From the IMG/VR virus record IMGVR_UViG_3300045741_000353, positions 1 to 37,742 of that record: a stretch of DNA of 37,742 nt, one strand, 5' to 3'. The notes under the pieces are model-generated. The model worked only from the letters and a program-made list of their open reading frames with translations, did not search any database and was not told the origin of the DNA. This DNA is from a virus. Each line of letters begins with the position of its first letter. Within the stretch, counting starts at the first letter, position 1. Shown here piece after piece: positions 20,158 through 37,742 of this stretch. A program made the translations under genes and the position numbers.

Positions 20158-22787
20158 TGAAAAAAATCATTTTAATTTTCTCAATAATTTTTGGTGCCGC
20201 TGTATTTGCAACAATAGACACTCCGACTTTGCCAAATTTAAAATTAAAAAATTTGACAGCAAGTCAAATTACAGCAACTGACGCTAACAAAACTTTTCAA
20301 TCAGTGGCTGTGTCTCCAACTGAATTGCTAAATGTTGCTGGAGTGACATCAAGTTTGTGCGGGATTTCTCAAAGTTGCACTTTAACAAATAAAACTATGA
20401 GCGGAGCTGCAAATACATTTACTAATATCTCACTAACATCATCTGTGACTGGTATTTTACCAGTTGCAAATGGTGGTACAAATTTATCATCTGGCATTAG
20501 TGGTGGTATTTTAGGATTTTCTGCACCTGGAGTTTTAGCGTCTAGTGCATTGCTTGGGACTAATCAAATTGTGCTTGGTGGTGGAGCTGGCGCAACTCCA
20601 ACATCGCTCCCGTCATTAGGTACAGCAACAACATTACTCCATGGTAACGCAGCTGGAGCACCTAGTTTTTCATCTGTATCTTTAACAGCTGATGTAAGTG
20701 GCACTCTGCCGATTGCAAGTGGTGGTACAAATTCAGCCACAGCGCTCAATAACAATAGAGTAATGGTTTCCAGTGCTGGTTCTATTTCTGAGGCCCTGGC
20801 TATTACTGGAAATAAAGCCTTGGCATCAAATGCCTCTGGTATCCCTGTTGCCTCTGCTACAACAGACACTGAATTAGGATTTGTCTCTGGCGTGACATCT
20901 GCGATTCAAACTCAACTCAATGGCAAGCAAGCAACTGGTAATTACATTACAAATCTCACTGGTGATGTCACAGCAACTGGTCCTGGCTCTGTTGCTGCGA
21001 CTTTAGCCAACACAGCTGTAACGCCTGGCTCTTACACTCTTGGGAGTTTTACTGTTGATGCAAAAGGACGGCTAACATCTGCATCAAATGGTACGGCTGT
21101 TACAAGCGTGTCTGCCACAGTGCCTGCATTCCTGTCCATATCTGGAAGCCCCATTACAACTTCTGGGACACTCGCTATAGGGCTTAGTGGCACAGCCTTG
21201 CCTGTTGCTAACGGTGGCACGGGATTAACGGCTGGCACATCTGGAGGCATTCTAGGATACACAGCCACAGGCACTTTGGCCTCAAGTGCTGTTTTGACAG
21301 CTAATCGAATAGTTTTAGGCGGTGGCGCTGGTGCAACGCCTGGTGTTTTAGGTTCACTTGGAACGACTACAACAGTTTTACATGGTAATGCCGCTGGTGC
21401 GCCAACTTTTGGTGCAGTTAGTTTGACTGGTGACGTGAGTGGTACTTTGCCGGTGGCTAACGGTGGCACAAATGTTACATCAGTTACAACAGCGCCAACT
21501 GCCACATCATTTGCTGGATGGGATGCAAACAAAAATTTATCAGCAAATAATTTTATCGCTGGTTACACGACAACAGCAACATCTGGTGGCACAACAACTT
21601 TAACAGCGTCCAGCACATATCAGCAATTTTTTACAGGGACACTAGCTCAAACTGTTGTTTTGCCGGTCACAAGCACACTTGTTTTAGGCGAATCATTTTT
21701 AGTTGCAAACAATAGCACTCAAAATATTACAGTTCAAAGCTCTGGTTTAAACACGATTGCAACTATAGCTAGTGGTGATCAAGGTATTTTCACAGTAATT
21801 TTAACATCTGGTACAACCGCTGCATCATGGGCAAATGATGTTGGCGGTGGTGGCGGCAGTGGTACTGTTACAAGTGTCGCAATGACTGTCCCATCATTTT
21901 TATCAATTGCTGGCAGTCCGATTACAACAGCTGGTACTTTGGCTTTGACTTTAAGCGGGACAGCTTTGCCTGTCACGAGTGGTGGCACTGGTTTGGTGTC
22001 TGGCACAAGTGGAGCAATACCTTACTTTGCTGGAGGCACAACAATTGCCTCATCATCTGTACTTACTCAAAATGCTGTGATGGTTGGTGGTGGAATTGGT
22101 GCTGCGCCAATTACTTTAGCAAGCACTGGCACAGCTGGACAGGTTTTAACAAGCAATGGTTCATCGGCACCATCTTTTCAACAGACTGCCACTGGCGGTG
22201 GTTCATCATTTTTAACATCTGGCACCACTTACACAACTCCAGCAAACATTACCACATCAACTAGATTTAAATTTAAGTTGATTGGAGGTGGTGGTGGAGG
22301 TTCATCAGGTGCAATAAATAGCTATGCAGCTGGTGGCGGCGCTGGTGGTATGATTGATGTTTATTTAACTGGTTTAAATCCTAGCACTAGTTACACAATG
22401 GCAATCGGTGCGGCTGGTGCTGGTGGTGCAGTTGGTTTCTCTGGAGGAAATGGTGGTAATACAACCATTACCATCAACGCAACAACTTACACAGCTGGTG
22501 GCGGCGCTGGCTCTGTTTCCGGTACTCCAGGAACTGGTGGTACAGCAACCGGAGGTACGATAAATGTTGTTGGACAAGCTGGCTCTGGAAACTTTTTTTC
22601 AAATGGTGGAGGCATTGGAGGGAGCACTATATATGGTCCAGGTGGACCATCAAGAGGCACATCTGGAGTTGGGACTAACGCAACTGGGTTTGGTGGTGGA
22701 GGCGGTGGAGGCGTTGGCTCTGGTTCAACAGCTTTTGCTGGAGGCAATGGCACTCAAGGTGCGATATTAGTTGAATATCAAAACTAA
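20157..22787 (+). CDS. Tail fibre protein, 876 aa, with triplicated LPVANGGTG modules and a C-terminal glycine-rich domain
   Basis: Signal-like N-terminus MKKIILIFSIIFGAAVFA/TI. Repeated modules at 20448-20726, 21096-21470 and 21867-22181. The Gly-rich C-terminal domain starts at about 22212. Confidence 0.75.
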   Translation: MKKIILIFSIIFGAAVFATIDTPTLPNLKLKNLTASQITATDANKTFQSVAVSPTELLNVAGVTSSLCGISQSCTLTNKTMSGAANTFTNISLTSSVTGILPVANGGTNLSSGISGGILGFSAPGVLASSALLGTNQIVLGGGAGATPTSLPSLGTATTLLHGNAAGAPSFSSVSLTADVSGTLPIASGGTNSATALNNNRVMVSSAGSISEALAITGNKALASNASGIPVASATTDTELGFVSGVTSAIQTQLNGKQATGNYITNLTGDVTATGPGSVAATLANTAVTPGSYTLGSFTVDAKGRLTSASNGTAVTSVSATVPAFLSISGSPITTSGTLAIGLSGTALPVANGGTGLTAGTSGGILGYTATGTLASSAVLTANRIVLGGGAGATPGVLGSLGTTTTVLHGNAAGAPTFGAVSLTGDVSGTLPVANGGTNVTSVTTAPTATSFAGWDANKNLSANNFIAGYTTTATSGGTTTLTASSTYQQFFTGTLAQTVVLPVTSTLVLGESFLVANNSTQNITVQSSGLNTIATIASGDQGIFTVILTSGTTAASWANDVGGGGGSGTVTSVAMTVPSFLSIAGSPITTAGTLALTLSGTALPVTSGGTGLVSGTSGAIPYFAGGTTIASSSVLTQNAVMVGGGIGAAPITLASTGTAGQVLTSNGSSAPSFQQTATGGGSSFLTSGTTYTTPANITTSTRFKFKLIGGGGGGSSGAINSYAAGGGAGGMIDVYLTGLNPSTSYTMAIGAAGAGGAVGFSGGNGGNTTITINATTYTAGGGAGSVSGTPGTGGTATGGTINVVGQAGSGNFFSNGGGIGGSTIYGPGGPSRGTSGVGTNATGFGGGGGGGVGSGSTAFAGGNGTQGAILVEYQN

Positions 22788-22811: not shown

Positions 22812-23027
22812 ATGGATTTAGTGAAACAAAAATTAGGACCTGAAATTGACTTGTCAATAACAGTCAATGGAGGTGTTTTAGAATTTAAGTTTGAGCGCAA
22901 CAGTCCTAGCGGCACAGAGTCGTTTATTGTGACTGAATCACTCAAATATTTTATCGACAAAGAAAAAGCCAAGCTGCCACCTTGGATGCAAGGTTTGGTA
23001 AATGTGCTTGAGGGAGCTTTGCCCTAA
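22812..23027 (+). CDS. Hypothetical protein, 71 aa
   Basis: ORF track. SD AAAGGGG. TAATG-coupled to the next gene. Confidence 0.5.
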   Translation: MDLVKQKLGPEIDLSITVNGGVLEFKFERNSPSGTESFIVTESLKYFIDKEKAKLPPWMQGLVNVLEGALP

Positions 23028-23401
23028 TGGATAAATCAATTGTCCCAATTGACATTACTGACGTGGTTGAAAAGGCCAGAGCCAGTTTTGTCATTTGGGG
23101 GATTGGTGCTTTAATGTCCTATGCATCAACAGTATCTGGGCTTGGTTGGATATCATGGCCAGTCATTGGTCCTGTTGCTAAATATATTTTGAATGCCATT
23201 TTGACATTTTTATCAAAACAAGCTGTTTTAGAGGCGTTCATTTTAAACACAGCAATCAGAAAATCAGTTCAAGCATCTGATTTTTTGCGTGCTGTTGATT
23301 ATAAAAACTCTTTACCTGAGAATGCGAGCGATGAGGTTTATGACAAAGCAGAGCGCGATGAAATCGAGGCTTTTGTGGCTTTTGCCTCTATTTCTAATTA
23401 A
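23027..23401 (+). CDS. Membrane protein, 124 aa; holin or i-spanin candidate
   Basis: Hydrophobic stretch FVIWGIGALMSYASTVSGLGWISWPVIGPVAKYILNAILTFL (1-2 TM helices), then a charged helical tail. It lies upstream of the endolysin gene. Confidence 0.45.
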   Translation: MDKSIVPIDITDVVEKARASFVIWGIGALMSYASTVSGLGWISWPVIGPVAKYILNAILTFLSKQAVLEAFILNTAIRKSVQASDFLRAVDYKNSLPENASDEVYDKAERDEIEAFVAFASISN

Positions 23402-23792
23402 TTGCACAACAACACCACCTGACATTGCTGTATTTAGATCACTTACACAAAGGCTCAGTCATGACCCATTAAATGGTCATTTGATTTTGACTCCAGACCC
23501 AGTGTGCGAAAAAGAAATAAAAGAAATAGAGTGCGGCTTTGGTGTTTACATAATTAGCAAACGTCGAGTTTTTGTTGGCGAGCAAAAAGAGCATTGGTTT
23601 AAAGGCAAGCCATGGTCACAATTAAAAAAAGAATCGATATTGCTCCCCGCTGTTGAATCATATGCTCCATTATCAAAATACATCATAGATTCTTGTAAAG
23701 AGTTGGGTTGTAATGACCAAGTTGATAGATTTAAAGTGCAGCTTGACCAGTTAAATAATATTGAACCTAATTTAAATCCTAAGGGGGAGTGA
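23358..23792 (+). CDS. Putative lipoprotein, 144 aa, overlapping the 3' end of the membrane-protein gene (o-spanin-like arrangement)
   Basis: MKSRLLWLLPLFLINC is signal-like with a Cys, but Asn at -1 makes the lipobox atypical. The ORF is open from 23289, so the start is ambiguous (23322, 23331, 23340 or 23358). ATGA-type coupling to the endolysin gene. Confidence 0.4.
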   Translation: MKSRLLWLLPLFLINCTTTPPDIAVFRSLTQRLSHDPLNGHLILTPDPVCEKEIKEIECGFGVYIISKRRVFVGEQKEHWFKGKPWSQLKKESILLPAVESYAPLSKYIIDSCKELGCNDQVDRFKVQLDQLNNIEPNLNPKGE

Positions 23793-24439
23793 TGAGAGTT
23801 GTTTGTCCGGCAGGACCTGTAATAAAAGGTATTGATATTTATCAGGGAAATATGATTTCAGACATCAACCTTTTGAAATCAAGTGGGATTGTTTACGCAT
23901 TTCACAAAGCTTTTGAATATAGACAAGACCCTAAATTTAAAAGTAGATGGGATAATTTTAAAAGGGTTGGGATTGCTAGAGGTGCATATGATTTTTTTCA
24001 TCCAGGTAAGGATGTGGCAACCCAAGCAAGTAATTTTTTAGGTATTGTTGGCCAATTAGAGCCAACAGATATGGGATGTGTACTTGATTGGGAGGTCATG
24101 GATGGTCTGTCACCTGGTCCAAACAAAGAGCACGCTTTGAAATGGCTTGATATTGTTGAGCGAGCCACAAAAAAAACACCTGGCATCTATGGCTCATCCT
24201 CAATATTAGCTGGCCTTGGACTTGATCAAAGATTTAAAAAATATTGGCTATGGATTGCAAACTATGGTGTCCCTTGTCCTCACGTACCTCCACCTTGGGA
24301 CACTTGGACCTTTTGGCAAACTGATGACACCAAGCATGTGCCAGGTATTGCTGGAGCGTGTGATAGGGACCTTTTTAATGGGTCTATTGATCAATTTCAC
24401 AACTTTATCAAAACAACTAATTTAGGGGGGATGAAATGA
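23789..24439 (+). CDS. Endolysin, glycoside hydrolase family 25 muramidase
   Basis: GH25 pattern: GIDIYQGN..., GAYDFFHP, VLDWE, LWIANYG, WTFWQ, and GIAGACDRDLFNG at the C-terminus. No signal peptide. Confidence 0.85.
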   Translation: MMRVVCPAGPVIKGIDIYQGNMISDINLLKSSGIVYAFHKAFEYRQDPKFKSRWDNFKRVGIARGAYDFFHPGKDVATQASNFLGIVGQLEPTDMGCVLDWEVMDGLSPGPNKEHALKWLDIVERATKKTPGIYGSSSILAGLGLDQRFKKYWLWIANYGVPCPHVPPPWDTWTFWQTDDTKHVPGIAGACDRDLFNGSIDQFHNFIKTTNLGGMK

Positions 24440-27075: not shown

Positions 27076-27888
27076 GTGCCAGATATTGCAAGTGCTTTAA
27101 TTAAAATGAATGACTCTGAAATAGGCTCTGACAAACCAGTGTCAGAGGCGTTAATGACAAAGCTTGGTGCAAGCATAAATGCTTTGATTGATTTAGCACC
27201 ATCATTTCAGGCTTTTAATTCTAATGGGTCTTTTACTGCGCCACCAAATGTAACTCGTGTATTTTTATTTGGATGGGGAGGTGGAGGTGGAGGTGGAGGT
27301 GGTGCTGGTGCTGCAACAAATGGTGGTAATGGAGCTAATGGCACAAGTACATCATTTGGTACAACTCTTTTTATTGGTGGAGTTGGTGGAGTTGGTGGAG
27401 TTGGTACTGGTAACCCATCATCTGGTGGAGTTAGTACAGGTGTTGCAAGTGGTGGAAATGGTGGCATAGCCAGTCCAACTCTTATTTTTCCAACAAATGG
27501 ATTTTCAAGCTTCAATTTTCCAGGTGGTAACGCTGGCAGTAATAACAATGGCTTAGGTGGCGGTGGAGGTGGCGGTGGCGCTGCGAGCTCTGGCGGTGCT
27601 GGCGGCGCTGGCGGATCACCCGGTAATGGTGGCAATGGCTCTGGTGGTGCTTTTAATACAGGTGCCGGTGGTGGTGGTGGTGGTGGGTGTGGTGTTGCTG
27701 GTCATCAAGGCGGTGGTGGTGGCGGGAGTGGCTCACCAGGCAATCTTATTGGATTAGGCGTTACACCTGGAGCGACTTATACAATAACCATAGGTAACGG
27801 TGGCTCACCTGGCAGCGCTGGAACAGGTGTAAACACTGGAGGGTTAGGTGGCTCTGGTGGCTCTGGTGGCTTAGTTGTTTTTTGGTAA
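27076..27888 (+). CDS. Glycine-rich domain protein, 270 aa; paralogous to the C-terminus of the 876-aa fibre
   Basis: GTG start after TAAGGGGGAT. FTAPPNVTRVFLFGWGGGGGGGG ... TPGATYTITIGNGG ... GLVVFW parallels TTPANITTSTRFKFKLIGGGGGG ... TSYTMAIGAAG ... AILVEYQN in the fibre. Confidence 0.65.
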   Translation: MPDIASALIKMNDSEIGSDKPVSEALMTKLGASINALIDLAPSFQAFNSNGSFTAPPNVTRVFLFGWGGGGGGGGGAGAATNGGNGANGTSTSFGTTLFIGGVGGVGGVGTGNPSSGGVSTGVASGGNGGIASPTLIFPTNGFSSFNFPGGNAGSNNNGLGGGGGGGGAASSGGAGGAGGSPGNGGNGSGGAFNTGAGGGGGGGCGVAGHQGGGGGGSGSPGNLIGLGVTPGATYTITIGNGGSPGSAGTGVNTGGLGGSGGSGGLVVFW

Positions 27889-27891
27889 TAA

Positions 27892-28407
27892 ATGGGTTTA
27901 GACAGCACTCGTGAGGCCTTGATGCGACAGCAATCGCGTGAGGCCAAACGCTCAGTTAGGCGTCCTAGGCATAATAAAAAGCCAGAGTTTGAATTTAAAA
28001 AAATAGCTGTCAACTGGCTTGCTGATAATGATTTTAAAATGAACGTGGTTGAGTCAAAAGCTGTCTATAATTATGCAGCTGGCAGATATGATCATGGACA
28101 AACAGAGGCTGGATTTTCTGACTTAGTTGGTGTGACACCTTACTTTGGCGTTGCTTGCTATATTGAGCTAAAAGCACCTGGTAAACGCTCAACTTTAGAA
28201 ATTCATCAACGTGATTTCTTGATTGATAAAATAAAGGTTGGTGCTTTTTGTTGCTGCATCGATTCAGTTGACATTTTAAATGAGATTTATTTAGGTTGGT
28301 TAAATTTGAGAAAAACTCAAAGATTCTCTGTGTCTAAAGAATGGCTCATTAATTGGTTACCAAAGGTCAAAGAATTGACAGACAATTTGGCTGATATTAC
28401 AGGATGA
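27892..28407 (+). CDS. VRR-NUC domain nuclease
   Basis: GFSDLVGV...ACYIELKAPGKRSTLEIHQRDFL fits the D...ExK...Q VRR-NUC core. Confidence 0.6.
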   Translation: MGLDSTREALMRQQSREAKRSVRRPRHNKKPEFEFKKIAVNWLADNDFKMNVVESKAVYNYAAGRYDHGQTEAGFSDLVGVTPYFGVACYIELKAPGKRSTLEIHQRDFLIDKIKVGAFCCCIDSVDILNEIYLGWLNLRKTQRFSVSKEWLINWLPKVKELTDNLADITG

Positions 28408-28520
28408 TTAGCGCCAATTTGCGGCCATTGTTTAAATCTTAGTCTTTTAAATCAAATACATTATGATTTAAGGTTGCATAGTGATTGCATTTGTATTCAG
28501 TCACTCCAATTAGAACGCAG

Positions 28521-28570
28521 CAACCAGAGTTACTTGATTCTAGGGGATAAAGTGGCTCTGGTTGTTTTTT
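28521..28570 (+). terminator. Hairpin plus T6 at the convergence point of the two arms
   Basis: CAACCAGAG (28521-28529) pairs with CTCTGGTTG (28556-28564), followed by TTTTTT. The 26-nt loop is long for a canonical terminator. Confidence 0.45.
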
Positions 28571-29246
28571 AAAGTATTGTGAATTCAGTCCCGAACGGGT
28601 TAACCGTGATTGGTCCCGTGAAATACATATTATTTAAAAGACTGATCATTGAGTTAGCCCTGCCAACGCTTTTCTGCCACTCATCTCTTGTGTCTGGGTC
28701 ATGTGGGTAAATAAGTGTTTCGCGCCTGACTTCCATGAACTTCTTAAGCCATGTCTTTTCATCTGACACCGGGCCTGATCTTTTAATCAATCCACCCAAG
28801 CTATCATGATCATCCCCGTCGCCATGTTGAATGATAGCCTCATAGATCGCGACCTTGGTCAGATCATACTGAAAACCATGTCTATCTGCGTGAACCATAG
28901 CCGGGTAATAATAGAGTTTGTCGCTGACAAAATCCTGGGCGTCCTTGAAAATTTGATTAAGGCAGGCATGTTTCCATGCAGCAGGTAACCCACCCAAAAA
29001 GTGAGTACTGCCACTTTTGTACTTAGCCAAATTTCTGAGCGTCGGTAATAGTTTTTTAAAGTCCACTGGGAATCTCTCCACAACCTCAAGCAAGTCCCCC
29101 TCAGCCGTACAAAACCCAGCACGTCCAGCCGTGTACCCTCTGCCATCGTGCAGGTTATCGATATAGCCGTACTGGAGTTCAAGCGTCTCGTTCTCAAAGA
29201 CGCTTATTAATTGATCGGCTCTACGTTTTTGAAATGGGGTTAGCAT
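28569..29246 (-). CDS. Glycoside hydrolase family 46 chitosanase
   Basis: ISVFENETLELQYGYIDNLHDGRGYTAGRAGFCTAEGDLLEVVE aligns by eye with the Streptomyces N174 chitosanase region SSAENSSLDW..QYKYIEDIGDGRGYTGGIIGFCSGTGDMLELVQ (catalytic Glu and Asp contexts). No signal peptide. Confidence 0.85.
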   Translation of the reverse strand: MLTPFQKRRADQLISVFENETLELQYGYIDNLHDGRGYTAGRAGFCTAEGDLLEVVERFPVDFKKLLPTLRNLAKYKSGSTHFLGGLPAAWKHACLNQIFKDAQDFVSDKLYYYPAMVHADRHGFQYDLTKVAIYEAIIQHGDGDDHDSLGGLIKRSGPVSDEKTWLKKFMEVRRETLIYPHDPDTRDEWQKSVGRANSMISLLNNMYFTGPITVNPFGTEFTIL

Positions 29247-29404
29247 TAACCGGAACCGTAACCGGAACCGTAACCGGAACCGTAACCGGAACCGTCACCG
29301 TCACCGTAACCGTCACCGTAACCGTAACCGGAACCGGAACCGTCACCGTCACCGTAACCGTAACCGGAACCGTCACCGGAACCGTAACCGTCTACTGTTT
29401 CCAT
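29246..29404 (-). CDS. 52-aa (Gly-X)24 repeat peptide, X = Tyr/Ser/Asp (below the ORF-track cutoff)
   Basis: ATG 29404, with GAGGCGG about 7 nt upstream. Translation: METVDGYGSGDGSGYGYGDGDGSGSGYGYGDGYGDGDGSGYGSGYGSGYGSG. The TAA stop overlaps the chitosanase ATG (TAATG), and the start overlaps the end of the upstream gene. Confidence 0.5.
   Translation of the reverse strand: METVDGYGSGDGSGYGYGDGDGSGSGYGYGDGYGDGDGSGYGSGYGSGYGSG
29249..29392. repeat. Tandem hexanucleotide array: 24 units of ACCGGA, ACCGTA or ACCGTC
   Basis: Read directly: 8 ACCGGA, 9 ACCGTA and 7 ACCGTC units with no interruption. Confidence 0.95.
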
Positions 29405-29682
29405 ATTTCTACCGCCTCAATAATTTTAGACGCCACGTCAGTCACATTAAGTACTTCAATAATTTCACTGACTTCAATTTCATCAACCGGGGTAGGAAAT
29501 TTACATTCTTTTGGACATTGAGGGCCGTCTACTGCCAATTGACTAAGGCTTGAGGCACCTTTCCAATACCATAGGCGGCGGGCATTCTTTAATATGCCTC
29601 GCTTACCATCGACTGATCTATTTTCAATATCTCCCGGAATGTAAAATACTCCCGCTGAATATGTTCTAACTATCTTTGCCAT
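29392..29682 (-). CDS. Conserved phage protein, 96 aa (RTYSAGV...ARRLWYWKGA..LS.LA motif family)
   Basis: ORF track. The motif pattern recalls a widespread phage family of unknown function (DUF6948-like, from memory and unverified). Confidence 0.55.
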   Translation of the reverse strand: MAKIVRTYSAGVFYIPGDIENRSVDGKRGILKNARRLWYWKGASSLSQLAVDGPQCPKECKFPTPVDEIEVSEIIEVLNVTDVASKIIEAVEIWKQ

Positions 29683-29701
29683 TCAACTTCTCCTTTATTG
29701 G

Positions 29702-29986
29702 TTATTCAATTTCCTTCAAACATTCCCTCGCCTTCGAACCCATCCGATCAGCATAATGCCTGAGCGCGACCTTGGCCTTTTCGAGTTTGGCTTGGCATTC
29801 CTGCATTCTTTGCTCATGCAGGAATAGGCTGATGCATTCTTTGTTTAGCCGCTCGATCTCTGCGCGGGCTTCGGTGAGTTGATCGCTAAATCTTTCAACC
29901 TCAGAATTAGCTACATCGATGTCAGCCTGCGCCGCCTTCAAATTCTCCATCACTCGCTCACAATTGTTGCAGTACTTTTCTCTCAT
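29702..29986 (-). CDS. Coiled-coil protein, 94 aa
   Basis: The ORF is open from 30031, but ATG 29986 forms an ATGA overlap with the stop of the upstream gene. Heptad-rich sequence. Confidence 0.5.
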   Translation of the reverse strand: MREKYCNNCERVMENLKAAQADIDVANSEVERFSDQLTEARAEIERLNKECISLFLHEQRMQECQAKLEKAKVALRHYADRMGSKARECLKEIE

Positions 29987-30216
29987 TCGCTTACTCCTAA
30001 ACGCCAAATGTCCCCGTTTGACAGTACCCATTTTGTCGGCTCATCGGGAGACCGTTTGCAACAACATGACCAACCTTGGAAAGGATCAACCATTATAGCG
30101 TCACCATTTAATTCATCCCCACCCACAAGCCGTCCGCAACGCTTACAATTGTCCACCCCATAACCCCTGATCAAAGACCAAAATAATCTGAAGATTCTCC
30201 AGCGCCGCGAGGTCAT
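29983..30216 (-). CDS. Cys-rich small protein, 77 aa (possible zinc ribbon)
   Basis: CKRCG ... SCCCKR. ATGA overlaps at both ends. Confidence 0.45.
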   Translation of the reverse strand: MTSRRWRIFRLFWSLIRGYGVDNCKRCGRLVGGDELNGDAIMVDPFQGWSCCCKRSPDEPTKWVLSNGDIWRLGVSE

Positions 30217-30380
30217 TTCTTATCCCAGGCTTGGAGGGCTGCGTCCGCAACTTCCCAGTAATTTGGCATTGAGTAATAGGTAAGAGAGCTATCACTATTA
30301 ATTTTCGTAAGCGCCTCAACCAACCCCAATACCTCATTGGATTTAAGCGCCGCACGGCTCAAACGCTCGGGGTAGGTCAT
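30213..30380 (-). CDS. Hypothetical protein, 55 aa (below the ORF-track cutoff)
   Basis: ATGA overlap with the methyltransferase stop and with the next start. Translation: MTYPERLSRAALKSNEVLGLVEALTKINSDSSLTYYSMPNYWEVADAALQAWDKK. It replaces the competing 70-aa ORF 30143..30355. Confidence 0.45.
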   Translation of the reverse strand: MTYPERLSRAALKSNEVLGLVEALTKINSDSSLTYYSMPNYWEVADAALQAWDKK

Positions 30381-30826
30381 TTGCGCCTCCTAAGTTGAAC
30401 CCAATAAGTTGTGGACGCTCGCATTGTGCGTACTGACGTTTTATGTCCAAACAGCGGCTCCCAGTAATCGGCCATCAAAGCAAGCGCCGACTTTAAACTT
30501 AAATCATGGTCATTCCATTTGAAGGCCATGAGTGCATTCGGTTTGCAGATTCGATGGGCCTCCTTCGCTGTCCCTCGAATGATTTCTTTTATTTCTTTGG
30601 CCGTGTGGTGGCCGTAGTTTTTTGACATGTTTCCGTTTTTGCCGAAGTTAGCATGGGGCGGGTCAAATACGGCCAGGTCGAAGTGCGCGTCTGCTAAGTG
30701 CGTATTACGAGAATCAAGAACAAACGTTGGTTCAACTTCAGGTCGGATATCCAAGAAAACAGCGCCAGGATATTTCTTGTTAAACCATACGGCGCGTGTC
30801 CCAGCAGTTAAGTCTACAATTCTCAC
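30377..30826 (-). CDS. Small SAM-dependent methyltransferase (DPPH motif; probably DNA N6A/N4C type)
   Basis: Motif I-like VDLTAGTR, motif IV FDPPH, and a post-motif ...RICKPNALMAFKW. GTG start overlaps the upstream stop (GTGA). Confidence 0.5.
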   Translation of the reverse strand: MRIVDLTAGTRAVWFNKKYPGAVFLDIRPEVEPTFVLDSRNTHLADAHFDLAVFDPPHANFGKNGNMSKNYGHHTAKEIKEIIRGTAKEAHRICKPNALMAFKWNDHDLSLKSALALMADYWEPLFGHKTSVRTMRASTTYWVQLRRRK

Positions 30827-31092
30827 ATCCCCTCCAAAGTTTTCTCAAGGGCTGAGAGGGCTTCGCGCATAGTATCGCAATCCTTGTGATCTAAAAAATG
30901 GCCAAGGTGCGAATGCTCTCCACACTTGTCCGGTATTGTCGGCATGTTTTCGACAAACTCAATCAGGGCGCTTAGGATGGGCTGGAGGCAAATATGCGCT
31001 CGCTGTCGTCCGCGTTCAAAATCAAAGTCGTTGCCCTCGACGTTTTTAAACTCACACGCCTTGCGTAGACGGTCGAGGAGAGTGATGGTCAT
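30823..31092 (-). CDS. Hypothetical protein, 89 aa
   Basis: ORF track. ATGA overlap with the subtilase stop. Confidence 0.5.
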   Translation of the reverse strand: MTITLLDRLRKACEFKNVEGNDFDFERGRQRAHICLQPILSALIEFVENMPTIPDKCGEHSHLGHFLDHKDCDTMREALSALEKTLEGM

Positions 31093-32399
31093 TTTACTGT
31101 CTCACCAATGTCATATTGTCCCATGCCTTGCTGGTCTTGGGTTAAACCAAGATTTACAAATCCTGTCAATGATTTTCCTTTAGCCAACATAATCGCAAAT
31201 GTTGCAGCTGCCGCTGGAGTTGCCATTGATGTACCATTTAGAATTTTTACAGGTCCACCAAGAGGGATTGGCCAGGTGGATGGGATATTTGAGCCTGGAG
31301 CAATACCCATCTTACCACCTATTTTTACACCTCGACTTGAGAAAAAAGACATATGCATTGATTCATCCATTGAGGTCACAGTCCATACGTTTGGTTTATT
31401 ACCTGGAAATCCAATAGGTCCTCCAGAACTATTTCCAGCCGCTGCCACAAAAATACCACCTTGAGCAACATAGGCATCAATCTGTGCTCCAATGTAAGGG
31501 TCTGAGCCTTGGTCCATACCCCAACTAGCTGATACAATTTGAGCATGGCTTTGAGCCGCATCATTTATGCATCCACCAAGAGATAATGAATCTCCAGAGC
31601 CTTGATTGTTTAACCCTTTACATGGCTTGATTTTAACATGCGCATGACCAAACCGAGTGCTCCCAATGATGCCAGCTGTGTGACTGCCATGGCCTGAGCC
31701 GTCAATATTCACTGGCTGTCCAGCAACTCGACTCACTCCAGGCACAAGCATACCAGCTGGAAATTGGTCCATAATTGATTGGTCAAGACCAGTGTCAATA
31801 TCCTCAATCAAGATATTACTCGCATCAATCCCTTGGCTCACATGCATGGCCTTTTGACCCCACGTTGTTTCTTGAATTGGACTTGGGTTAGGTGTTGGCG
31901 TTGGCACTGGATTAGGCGTTGGTGGTGGAGTGGGAGTTGGTACAGGTTGCGGGGGAGATTGGCAATTGCTGTCAACTGGAGTTAGCCTGTAAAGCGTCTC
32001 ATAAACATGGTAATATTGAACCTTTTGAATGGTCCAATTTTCATCAGAATGCTTTGAAAAATCCTCACCATGTTTTGCAACAAAACTAAATCCATTTATG
32101 CCATCAATAGGTTCAACTTGGTCGGCATTAAGTGTTGCCATTTGAAAATATTTTGCCTCAATCGTTTTATCACCTTTTTGCTTTTTAAATTTATGCTTGT
32201 GAAACGCAATCCATTTATCAGTCTTTGGCTCATCAATCTGATATTTGGCAAATTCTTGAGGTTTTGATTTAGGTAATGATCTGTAAGGATGATAATAAAA
32301 TGCGAGCATTGTTAAACCAGTGATTATAAATAAGATCAAAGGTACAATTTTTAACCACTTGGACCAAAAATCAACCATGTCTTTTTGCTCATTATCCAT
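31089..32399 (-). CDS. Membrane-anchored subtilisin-like serine protease (S8)
   Basis: N-terminal TM helix IVPLILFIITGLTMLAFYY and a Pro/Thr linker PPQPVPTPTPPPTPNPVPTPTPNPSP. Catalytic motifs in D-H-S order: DIDTG, HGSHTAG, AAAGN, GTSMATP. Confidence 0.85.
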   Translation of the reverse strand: MDNEQKDMVDFWSKWLKIVPLILFIITGLTMLAFYYHPYRSLPKSKPQEFAKYQIDEPKTDKWIAFHKHKFKKQKGDKTIEAKYFQMATLNADQVEPIDGINGFSFVAKHGEDFSKHSDENWTIQKVQYYHVYETLYRLTPVDSNCQSPPQPVPTPTPPPTPNPVPTPTPNPSPIQETTWGQKAMHVSQGIDASNILIEDIDTGLDQSIMDQFPAGMLVPGVSRVAGQPVNIDGSGHGSHTAGIIGSTRFGHAHVKIKPCKGLNNQGSGDSLSLGGCINDAAQSHAQIVSASWGMDQGSDPYIGAQIDAYVAQGGIFVAAAGNSSGGPIGFPGNKPNVWTVTSMDESMHMSFFSSRGVKIGGKMGIAPGSNIPSTWPIPLGGPVKILNGTSMATPAAAATFAIMLAKGKSLTGFVNLGLTQDQQGMGQYDIGETVK

Positions 32400-33557: not shown

Positions 33558-33995
33558 TTATGGCTGTATCAAATAAAATGCAAGCCACCAATAAAAATAC
33601 CACCAATGCGAGCCATTTCTAATCATATCTTTAATGGCATCCCAAACTGGCATCCCCTTTTTTATGTTGTATGCAGCACATACTAGCCCAGTCCTGTCCT
33701 TACCAGTTTTGCAATGCACATAAATTGGCTGATATTTAGTCATTAATTCAACTGCATCATCTAGCTCATGCTTTGTTGGTGGCAATATCGCACCAAGAGG
33801 ATGGCACCAACCAATCATATTGCATTGATCAGCAATTAGTTGATTCTCAAGTGGTGAGCCGTCCATTAGCCAATGTGCTCCAGTCTCAAGGTCCAGCACA
33901 TGACTAATCTCAAGAGCAATTAATTGTTTCCAATCATCTGGATTTTGAGGCTCAGGACCACGCCAAATTTTAGCGTCAACTTGTTTTATTTCCAT
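33558..33995 (-). CDS. Cys-based protein tyrosine/dual-specificity phosphatase-like enzyme
   Basis: Active-site loop VHCKTGKDRTG (HCx5R[S/T]). Confidence 0.7.
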   Translation of the reverse strand: MEIKQVDAKIWRGPEPQNPDDWKQLIALEISHVLDLETGAHWLMDGSPLENQLIADQCNMIGWCHPLGAILPPTKHELDDAVELMTKYQPIYVHCKTGKDRTGLVCAAYNIKKGMPVWDAIKDMIRNGSHWWYFYWWLAFYLIQP

Positions 33996-36044: not shown

Positions 36045-36617
36045 TTATTTGTCCCTATGCTCATAAATAAGTTTTAGTTTTTGATCTTTTGTTGAATTGT
36101 AGAAATCATCAGGCGTCACAGTTGGCTCGCCAAATGTTTCTCTCAGTGTGAATGTCTCAGAGAATTTTTTTGATGTCATTTGCAAATAAAAATAAACCAA
36201 TCTAGAGCAATAGAATGCACGCTGTGCTCCCCAATCAAACTCATAATCATAATTTGAGCCAATTGCTGATGTTGCTCTGTTAAATGCTAGTGTTGCATCT
36301 TTATCATCAAATCTAATCACGCACCAATTGTGCTTTTTTAAAACCCAGTCAAAAAAATTTACCTCTTGGACAGATGGTGCCACACTCTCAATCACTTTTC
36401 CATAGCCATAAATTGCGGCATGTGACCAGTAACCAGGGATAAATAAATTGGTAAAATGCCAGGCCTCTCTTGAGAGCAAAATATCACCTTGCCTCATCCT
36501 TTGCAGAGCAAAGTTGGCCTCACTAAACGTAGTCTGTGGCTCTGGAGGATGCATTTTCTGCATGATCTTTTGAATTGGGATTGAGAGGTGGAGCAACCAA
36601 TATCTAATTTTTTTCAT
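36045..36617 (-). CDS. YiiX/YaeF-like permuted papain-fold (C92/NlpC-P60-related) amidase
   Basis: The pattern GDILLSRE...YWSHAAIY...VIES...GSNYDYEF...FYCSRLVY matches the permuted His...Cys arrangement of that family. Confidence 0.55.
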
Positions 36618-37051: not shown

Positions 37052-37689
37052 TAAAAAGGTACGTCCATGTCATCGGGGATTGGTTTAGATTCACGCCTCG
37101 GTTTGCCTGTTTTTGTTGGCGCATAATTCTTTGGAGCCTTTCGCATAGTATGATCGCGCGTCTCTCCCGGAGGCTCTGGAAAATCATCCTTAGAGGTTGG
37201 CTTTGCTGCGGTTGGCTTTGCTGCGGTTGGCTTTGCGGTTTGTCTTGGTGGTTGTGCAGTGGCTGGTTTGCTGACTGTCTTGTCAAGCGCAGCTGGCCTA
37301 TCAATCAATTCATTCAAATAAACATTGTTGTACATTTTGCCTTGCCATTCTTTTTGTGCAACATAGATTATAACTGGCATTGGCATATTGTCCCATATTA
37401 GTGTTGCAATATCTTCAGGGCTGCCAACCTGAGAATAATCAAGACCAAGTGTGCTTAAATCTTTTTTTAAAAAACCAATCCCACGTCCCTCAAGCTGGTA
37501 ATTACCAAAAAGCTTGCGTCCCTCATTAACTCCCTCAGTAATTTGATATATGCAACTGAGCCTCACTGGCTCTTTTGTCAAATCCACCTGGCAATCAATG
37601 AGCTCAGCCTCATATTCGCCAGTTTCAATTAACGAAAATCCACCTGACTCTGGCGCTGTCTCTTGAAACATGCTCTTAAATTCTGACAT
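37051..37689 (-). CDS. DUF669-like single-stranded DNA-binding protein with an SSB-type acidic C-terminal tip
   Basis: N-terminal OB-like region typical of the DUF669 partners of Sak4. Pro/Ala/Lys linker with AKPTA tandem repeats. The C-terminus DDMDVPF mimics the bacterial SSB tip DDDIPF. SD GAGGGGAT. Confidence 0.55.
   Translation of the reverse strand: MSEFKSMFQETAPESGGFSLIETGEYEAELIDCQVDLTKEPVRLSCIYQITEGVNEGRKLFGNYQLEGRGIGFLKKDLSTLGLDYSQVGSPEDIATLIWDNMPMPVIIYVAQKEWQGKMYNNVYLNELIDRPAALDKTVSKPATAQPPRQTAKPTAAKPTAAKPTSKDDFPEPPGETRDHTMRKAPKNYAPTKTGKPRRESKPIPDDMDVPF
37196..37240. repeat. 15-nt tandem repeat (GGTTGGCTTTGCTGC, 2 full copies plus a partial one) encoding the AKPTA linker repeats
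   Basis: Read directly. It lies inside the SSB-like gene linker. Confidence 0.85.
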
Positions 37690-37742
37690 ATTATCCCCTC
37701 TCTTTTTTTTGTTTTAAAATCAAATTATCAAGTCGCTTAAAT
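37616..37742. repeat. Terminal direct repeat, copy 2 (identical to 1..127)
   Basis: Same 127-nt string as the window start. The unique genome length is therefore 37,615 bp. Confidence 0.9.

Follow-up and report, generated by a model that had tools for sequence, protein, structure and literature searches.

The leftward early operon of the phage genome analyzed here ends in a stretch of 2.5 kb (positions 28569-31092) with an atypical base composition, which raises the question whether this stretch was acquired in one piece or is a composite of separate gains. The window, i.e. the entire 37,742-nt stretch of DNA that was analyzed (IMG/VR record IMGVR_UViG_3300045741_000353, positions 1 to 37,742), carries an exact 127-nt direct repeat at its termini (1-127 and 37616-37742) and is thus a circularly assembled, complete phage genome of ~37,615 bp (~37.6 kb). 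The region in question contains eight genes, all on the minus strand, that encode, from the upstream end, an 89-aa protein (p89), a small orphan DNA methyltransferase, two proteins of 55 and 77 aa (p55 and p77), a predicted coiled coil of 94 aa (cc94), a 96-aa DUF6948 protein, a (Gly-X)n (GY) repeat peptide and the catalytic domain of a GH46 chitosanase. An earlier note on this DNA had delineated all eight open reading frames (ORFs) correctly and proposed that they form a single cassette, imported from a higher-GC genome and expressed as one unit. The evidence presented here indicates that the early operon probably ends in a mosaic of accessory genes, with at least two separate gains around a conserved gene pair, DUF6948 and Gly-X, rather than in one cassette.

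Base composition and codon usage

The GC content of the region is 47.3%, compared with 40.4% for the rest of the genome, and tops all 2.5-kb genome windows. At the scale of 60-nt lines, the two distributions overlap, with 35-60% GC within the region and 28-53% (5th-95th percentile) in the backbone, so that the shift described in the earlier note exists but its range of 50-58% against 27-42% was too strong. The difference is more pronounced at the third codon positions (GC3), with pooled values of 0.48 in the region and 0.32 in the rest of the genome, and per-gene medians of 0.48 and 0.33, respectively (Mann-Whitney p = 6.5e-5). The codon usage of 29702-31092 lies at a distance of 0.449, compared with a null expectation of 0.219 ± 0.033 from random backbone stretches (0 of 2000 resamples), and that of the GH46 gene at 0.438, compared with 0.306 ± 0.041 (p ~0.0015). 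The 4-mer distance of the whole region exceeds those of all 351 genome windows. The region hence deviates in each of the sliding-GC, codon-usage and k-mer analyses that had been proposed as checks.

This deviation is discontinuous. When GC3 is read in-frame in 40-codon windows, it steps up abruptly from the gene for a subtilisin-like (S8) protease, which directly precedes the region (0.17-0.40), to p89 (0.55-0.60), steps down from cc94 (0.47-0.60) to DUF6948 (0.23-0.35), and rises again in GH46 (0.40-0.57). The break falls on DUF6948 (29392-29682), the overall GC3 of which, 0.32, is backbone-like. Two deviant patches result, A, which consists of p89, the methyltransferase, p55, p77 and cc94 (29702-31092), and B, which is the GH46 gene (28569-29246), with the DUF6948 and Gly-X pair separating them. 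The patches are also unlike each other in the choice of arginine and alanine codons, although the counts are small.

A GC shift of this kind could, in principle, stem from amino-acid composition or local selection, that is, from Gly-, Pro- or Ala-rich products and repeats, rather than from foreign origin. The genome provides clear instances of this effect: in the GY gene, the high GC comes from the GGT codons for glycine (GC of 0.62 at both the first and the second codon positions, GC1 and GC2); the S8 gene contains a stretch of 44-48% GC at a GC3 of 0.29; and a gene for a Gly-rich protein at 27076-27888 combines a local GC of 53% with a GC3 of only 0.21. In patch A and GH46, in contrast, it is the third positions that carry the excess (0.46-0.58; backbone median, 0.33), and different synonymous codons are preferred. 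Tests of GC3 and codon usage reject amino-acid composition as the cause for patch A and GH46 and leave it for the GY gene only; as an explanation of the region, it is highly improbable.

Because 29702-31092 and GH46 depart sharply from the backbone in both codon usage and GC3, a foreign, probably GC-richer origin is plausible for both patches; this part of the earlier proposal holds, but not in the form of one cassette. Consistent with GC-rich origin, the nearest relatives of GH46 are found in chromosomes of ~62% GC, and 10 of the 16 loci that encode relatives of the methyltransferase have at least 56% GC.

Distribution of the genes in other genomes

If all eight genes were gained together from a single higher-GC genome and work as one unit, the contiguity and tight packing of the region, its position as the most deviant 2.5-kb window of the genome and the lack of an excess of internal promoter- or terminator-like sites would follow naturally, as would the location of the GH46 relatives and most of the methyltransferase relatives in GC-rich DNA. 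The low GC3 of the central DUF6948 gene and the differences in Arg and Ala codons between patch A and GH46 are at odds with such an event, and so is the distribution of the genes elsewhere. The DUF6948 and Gly-X pair is kept in 41 other loci, none of which encodes the methyltransferase, GH46, p89, p55, p77 or cc94; the methyltransferase and GH46 are each found without the other; and a locus with at least two of these six non-pair genes was encountered neither among the 197 loci fetched nor in any collection searched. As far as the databases reach, the genes thus occur only independently and never as a block, which is the outcome that the earlier note had itself named as refuting its proposal. 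Taken together with the split caused by the DUF6948 and Gly-X pair, these observations make a single cassette or system, as originally envisaged, very unlikely, and favor separate gains around the pair.

The DUF6948 and Gly-X pair

The DUF6948 protein (29392-29682, minus strand) matches Pfam family PF22253 with an E-value of 1.1e-23 and a score of 83.6 bits, compared with a cut-off of 27, and has 4,726 homologues, with up to 81% identity in otherwise unrelated phages. Its gene overlaps by 13 nt (29392-29404) with the gene for the 52-aa Gly-X peptide (29246-29404, minus strand), in which X is mostly Tyr, Ser or Asp; this junction was missing from the list in the earlier note. The peptide is encoded by a 6-nt tandem repeat of 24 copies (29247-29391).

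The neighborhood of DUF6948 was compared in 36 IMG/VR loci, a relative identified through TerL (L030), four contigs from ENA, Logan and NCBI, and the GenBank phage MW202898; with the window, 42 loci were scored, and MW202898 was checked separately. Apart from the window, the pair is noted for the loci L030, L097-L132, L135-L141 and L197. The Gly-X repeat lies directly downstream of, or is fused to, DUF6948 in all 42 scored loci and in MW202898. A separate Gly-X ORF is present in 39 of the 42 loci, two contigs end a few codons into it, and one locus contains an in-frame fusion; 31 of the 39 separate ORFs overlap DUF6948 by exactly 13 nt. The peptides vary from 28 to 255 aa; X is in most cases Ser, Asp or Tyr, and the repeat consists to ~40% of Gly, with Ser at 16%, Asp at 11% and Tyr at 10%. 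Gly-X is the sole conserved frame of the repeat, the other frames being variable between loci. In one locus (L140), the pair closes its arm, with convergent genes right behind and no GH46, which is the architecture of the window minus the chitosanase.

The fusion, in L110 (5875-6441, plus strand), encodes DUF6948 and Gly-X in one continuous frame (…VPVWASIVDGSGSGYGSG…) and, unless caused by an assembly indel, is supporting evidence of a functional link between the two predicted products. A programmed -1 frameshift that would join them was considered in view of the conserved 13-nt overlap but is not favored, the overlap sequence of the window, UGGAAAC, not being a canonical slippery heptamer. 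In two loci (L114 and L120), the repeat continues in-frame into a globular C-terminal part without a Pfam match, and in another (L124) the next gene contains a DUF4326 domain. Nine of the 36 IMG/VR contigs (L097-L099, L102, L104, L105, L111, L117 and L122) and two Logan contigs (L135 and L141) end in the Gly-X repeat or just past its start, so that the 6-nt repeat appears to be a recurrent breakpoint of metagenome assembly.

The alignment-based AlphaFold2 model of DUF6948 has a predicted local distance difference test (pLDDT) score of 97.3, and the PDB matches listed by Foldseek for this high-confidence model are all Sm/LSm proteins (a fold represented, for instance, by 3BY7 and the archaeal SmAP proteins) or constructs built on them, with a probability of 0.99. 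The TM-score is only ~0.5, with E ~0.04 and a sequence identity of 6-18%, so that an Sm/LSm-like fold is predicted for DUF6948 with moderate confidence, with ring formation and RNA binding as putative properties. Some eukaryotic Sm proteins have low-complexity tails, which the Gly-rich partner of DUF6948 recalls. The Gly-X repeat differs from such tails: it is acidic and rich in Tyr instead of RG, and as a rule a separate, overlapping gene encodes it. A literature search yielded no paper that mentions DUF6948 or PF22253. That DUF6948 and its overlapping gene, as the sole conserved core of the region, constitute an undescribed, widespread phage module, in which the products would jointly form a nucleic-acid-binding ring and an acidic, Tyr-rich disordered partner, and to which the methyltransferase block and GH46 are lineage-specific add-ons, is a proposal that can be held with roughly even confidence.

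The orphan methyltransferase and the small genes of patch A

The methyltransferase (30377-30826, minus strand, 149 aa, GTG start) is recognized by the PHROG profile phrog_954 ('DNA methyltransferase', 4e-27) and by the PADLOC profiles for type II (MTase_II, 4.6e-22) and orphan (1.1e-15) methyltransferases, whereas Pfam and NCBIfam contain no match and no relative has been solved. Its translation reads as a motif of the AdoMet type, VDLTAGTRA, near the N-terminus, followed by FDPPH; with motif I and motif IV both present, the protein is classified by sequence as an amino-type enzyme (N6-adenine or N4-cytosine). Homologues with 50-60% identity are encoded in 16 IMG/VR contigs, in unrelated neighborhoods, and a permissive phmmer search of the neighboring ORFs in these loci detected none of the other proteins of the region. 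The GC3 of these homologues tracks that of the contig (0.34-0.78). The family also extends to 249 GenBank phages of many hosts, at ~35% identity. The orphan methyltransferases of PHROG 954, such as gp24 of Enterococcus phage phiFL2A and its counterpart in EFC-1, which are annotated as DNA methyltransferases, resemble the enzyme of the window in size (~150 aa) and in the succession of the AdoMet motif and DPPH; the similarity, ~35% identity, covers 95% of the length, and the location in the early region and the absence of a partner nuclease are common to both.

The first gene of patch A encodes p89 (30823-31092, minus strand; GC3 0.58), for which a word-indexed search among 5.8 billion proteins returned only the self-match, and a single-sequence AlphaFold2 model is helical, with a low confidence (pLDDT 63.5) that falls short of what a fold search requires. 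For p55 (30213-30380, minus strand; GC3 0.54), no significant family match was obtained in profile searches that included Pfam, PHROG and PADLOC; the same searches gave only weak matches of the coiled-coil type for cc94 (29702-29986, minus strand; GC3 0.56), the last gene of the patch, which has an alternative upstream ATG at 30031 that would extend the protein to 109 aa. Between these two lies p77 (29983-30216, minus strand), with a CxxC … CCC arrangement of cysteines. An exhaustive phmmer search for p77 over 1.84 billion representatives produced the self-match and two spurious short matches; its GC2 exceeds its GC1, which is atypical of coding sequence, and its Shine-Dalgarno site is weak. 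Thus, p77 is the least certain gene call and may not be a real gene. The possibility of a hidden RNA gene in this stretch was dismissed, with neither an Rfam family nor a tRNA found there.

The region does not qualify as a restriction-modification or defense system: among the neighbors of the methyltransferase (55-94 aa), there is no partner nuclease and no match to nuclease or defense profiles, and PADLOC reports only the methyltransferase, a weak subtilase match for the S8 protease (3.5e-7) and coiled-coil noise for cc94. The opposite role could be envisaged, whereby genes that were gained separately have been co-selected as an operon for anti-defense or host takeover, with the methyltransferase and p89, p55, p77 and cc94 countering host immunity and translational coupling fixing their stoichiometry. 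Anti-defense genes commonly encode small early proteins that lack homologues, the methyltransferase fits both the type II and the orphan profiles without a partner nuclease, and the early-operon position and the five 4-nt overlaps in succession are compatible with such a function. However, none of the four small proteins shows homology to any known family, the neighbors of the methyltransferase elsewhere are unrelated, and 4-nt overlaps are common in the backbone, too. A dedicated anti-defense operon therefore seems unlikely, if less so than a single cassette, and a mosaic of accessory genes remains the preferred interpretation.

The GH46 chitosanase

The only gene of patch B, which is also the last one of the operon (28569-29246, minus strand; GC3 0.48), encodes a GH46 catalytic domain (Pfam Glyco_hydro_46, PF01374, 4.4e-45), with a score of 154 bits, compared with a cut-off of 27, over residues 12-198. 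The alignment with the secreted chitosanase of Bacillus subtilis (PDB 7C6C; 3e-60, residues 4-216) begins at the mature N-terminus of the latter, and the ~50% identity to such secreted enzymes extends over their whole mature part, with catalytic residues in common. E18 is invariant; its counterpart in the alignment is the residue that is changed from E in 7C6C to A in 7C6D. At least 90% of the sequences retain D34, within DGRGYT. Judging by these residues, the catalytic Glu and Asp are kept and the domain is that of a bona fide chitosanase. The aligned cellular homologues are proteins of 250-300 aa with an N-terminal leader, whereas the phage copy lacks a signal peptide and looks like a captured bacterial exo-enzyme minus its secretion signal.

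The nearest relatives, at ~50% identity, are chromosomal genes of GC-rich bacteria, with loci of 61-63% GC and a gene GC3 of ~0.77; one of them, in an Elusimicrobia metagenome-assembled genome, adjoins genes for ZapA, MgsA and YkuD. The matches among GenBank phages are limited to 19 Streptomyces phages, with identities of 25-32%; in IMG/VR, a profile-based scan that covered 2.9 million contigs identified two relatives. The one of these contigs that was examined (L195) encodes a protein with a signal peptide next to a translation that reads like a biotin-dependent carboxylase, so this locus looks cellular. No contig on record was retrieved when GH46 was looked up by exact sequence. Chitosanases have been described as auxiliary genes of phages, with GH75 in soil phages (V-Csn) and GH46 in chloroviruses (PMC9485262); the GH75 enzyme of soil viruses resembles the GH46 of the window in being a virus-borne chitosan hydrolase and a possible auxiliary gene. 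In phages, GH46 is very rare, and its presence in place of GH75 is unusual.

The chitosanase may have an accessory lytic role but was rejected as the main endolysin. This function is assigned to a GH25 muramidase that is encoded among the tail and tail-fiber genes of the late arm (23789-24439, plus strand). Small ORFs at 22812-23792 precede the GH25 gene and could encode holins.

Translation and transcription

The coupling of the genes in the region was described accurately in the earlier note, with ATGA junctions at 31089-31092, 30377-30380, 30213-30216 and 29983-29986, GTGA at 30823-30826, TAATG at 29244-29248, and a 19-nt gap between cc94 and DUF6948 (29683-29701). Overlapping junctions account for seven of the eight in the region, compared with ~24 of 46 elsewhere (Fisher p = 0.07). 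The notion of a distinct style of translation signals could not be sustained. The island genes were said to lack a Shine-Dalgarno sequence, but GGAGG-type sites are located upstream of five of the eight genes (the methyltransferase, p55, cc94, DUF6948 and GY): GGAGGGGAT stands upstream of the GTG start of the methyltransferase, TAGGAGG upstream of p55, with an anti-Shine-Dalgarno ΔG of -10.2 kcal/mol, and TAGGAG before the ATG of cc94 at 29986. The mean anti-Shine-Dalgarno ΔG is stronger in the region (-6.8 kcal/mol) than in the backbone (-4.5 kcal/mol). Conversely, the GGGGGAT-type signal that was thought to be used across the rest of the genome is rare, with GGGGAT or GGGGGA found upstream of only 10 of the 57 genes genome-wide. 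Given that overlaps are common throughout the genome and that strong sites precede five of the eight genes, translation in the region does not stand apart.

The convergent intergenic region contains a hairpin right behind the GH46 stop codon (28521-28564; an inverted repeat with 18-nt arms, 83% complementary), followed on the plus strand by a T-run that reads GTTTTTTAAAG and abuts this codon. The fold of 28405-28575 has an energy of -33.7 kcal/mol (z = -2.4), and the hairpin is a probable shared terminator at which both arms meet. A consensus scan of the region, for which the consensus may not be that of the host, detected 10 promoter-like and seven terminator-like sites, compared with 11.8 and 5.4, respectively, in shuffled sequence. 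With no excess of such internal sites and a hairpin after the last gene, the region is plausibly co-transcribed as the end of a single operon. The boundaries bear no marks of insertion: the only flanking direct repeats are short ones of the size expected by chance, and neither a tRNA gene nor an integrase-type match was detected in or beside the region.

Genome context

The backbone has two arms. The plus-strand arm (1919-28407) encodes the helicase/primase, terminase, head and tail proteins, the GH25 endolysin and tail fibers; the minus-strand arm (from 1812 to 76 and then from 37689 to 28569) encodes an AAA_24/Sak4-like protein, a DUF2800 exonuclease of the PD-(D/E)XK type, phosphatases and other proteins (recombination/replication), and the region analyzed here is its last 2.5 kb. 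The phages with TerL relatives in IMG/VR (at most 61% identity) have the structural module in common with the window but not the early arm. In GTDB genomes, the full-length identity of TerL does not exceed 34%, and the matches spread over many phyla, without pointing to one host.

The S8 protease gene (31089-32399, minus strand; Pfam Peptidase_S8, 5e-27) is the last one with backbone composition, and its stop codon overlaps the start of p89 (ATGA); GGGGAT is found upstream of it. The product is predicted to be membrane-anchored: the translation reads as an N-terminal hydrophobic, transmembrane segment and a Pro/Thr-rich linker, which is encoded by tandem repeats at 31877-31943, with the D/H/S triad motifs intact. 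Elsewhere in the early arm, a dual-specificity/tyrosine-phosphatase-like protein and a Peptidase_C92 protein (a permuted papain-like amidase) are encoded on the minus strand (33558-33995 and 36045-36617); these genes are atypical early-gene cargo.

Two features of the late arm are compositionally conspicuous as well. Part of the gene for an 876-aa tail fiber (~20.2-21.3 kb) shows a 4-mer deviation similar to that of 28569-31092, and the GC content within this gene reaches 46-50% at ~20200-21500 (plus strand), which suggests a mosaic receptor-binding region. The gene at 27076-27888 (plus strand), 3' of the tail-fiber genes, encodes an extremely Gly-rich protein of 270 aa and contains several short tandem repeats; at its N-terminus, this protein has 48% identity to one encoded on L135, which is among the contigs with DUF6948.

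Origin and biological implications

Comparative genomics of lambdoid phages has established morons and mosaic accessory clusters, i.e. atypical genes that do not look essential and that are added between or after conserved modules. Clusters of this type vary from one related phage to another, and methyltransferases as well as small genes that lack homologues are found among them. A classic moron comes with a promoter and a terminator of its own; in the region analyzed here, in contrast, neither stands out, and overlapping codons tie the genes to the resident operon.

Under the mosaic interpretation, transcripts that start at early promoters upstream would run through all genes of the region and stop at the hairpin at 28521-28564. 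Translation makes use of the ordinary GGAGG-type sites that are present inside the upstream genes and of stop/start overlap, as elsewhere in the genome. The methyltransferase may modify the phage DNA against host restriction, and p89, p55, p77 and cc94 would be typical early accessory proteins. DUF6948, if Sm-like, and its Gly-X partner would act jointly on nucleic acid. The signal-less chitosanase would build up in the cytoplasm and be freed at lysis, presumably driven by the GH25 endolysin, and would then cut glucosamine-containing polymers of the envelope, the matrix or the surroundings.

Several points weigh against this interpretation. Searches with GH46, the S8 protease and the exonuclease in IMG/VR, and with the latter two in JGI metagenomes, found no close sister phage, a megablast comparison of the region with GenBank phages returned no DNA-level match, and the proteins of the phage are singletons in the 5.8-billion-protein collection. 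Lacking a sister genome, the empty site cannot be compared, and composition is the sole basis for the order of the gains. The closest homologues of the methyltransferase (60% identity) and of GH46 (~50%) are too distant for donors to be named, and at such divergence amelioration should have wiped out the donor signature, so that the raised GC3 is not fully explained. The pair around which the gains are placed is itself mobile, judging by the DUF6948 protein that is 81% identical in an otherwise unrelated phage; 'resident', when applied to it, therefore denotes native-like codon usage and nothing else. Finally, p77 is a doubtful gene, and it is a prediction that the region is co-transcribed, that the methyltransferase methylates DNA and that the chitosanase is active and set free at lysis.

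As a cassette, the region carries little weight: it would be another mosaic accessory tail, such as are common in phage early operons, and the gene set does not reveal a new system. The signal-less GH46 appears to be a clear example of the capture of a bacterial exo-enzyme by a phage, and it prompts the question which glucosamine polymer needs to be cut. The practical effect of the Gly-X repeat is that it breaks metagenome assemblies. The most notable item is a by-product of the analysis, namely the pair of a predicted Sm-like DUF6948 protein and a Gly-X peptide, which recurs across very diverse phages.

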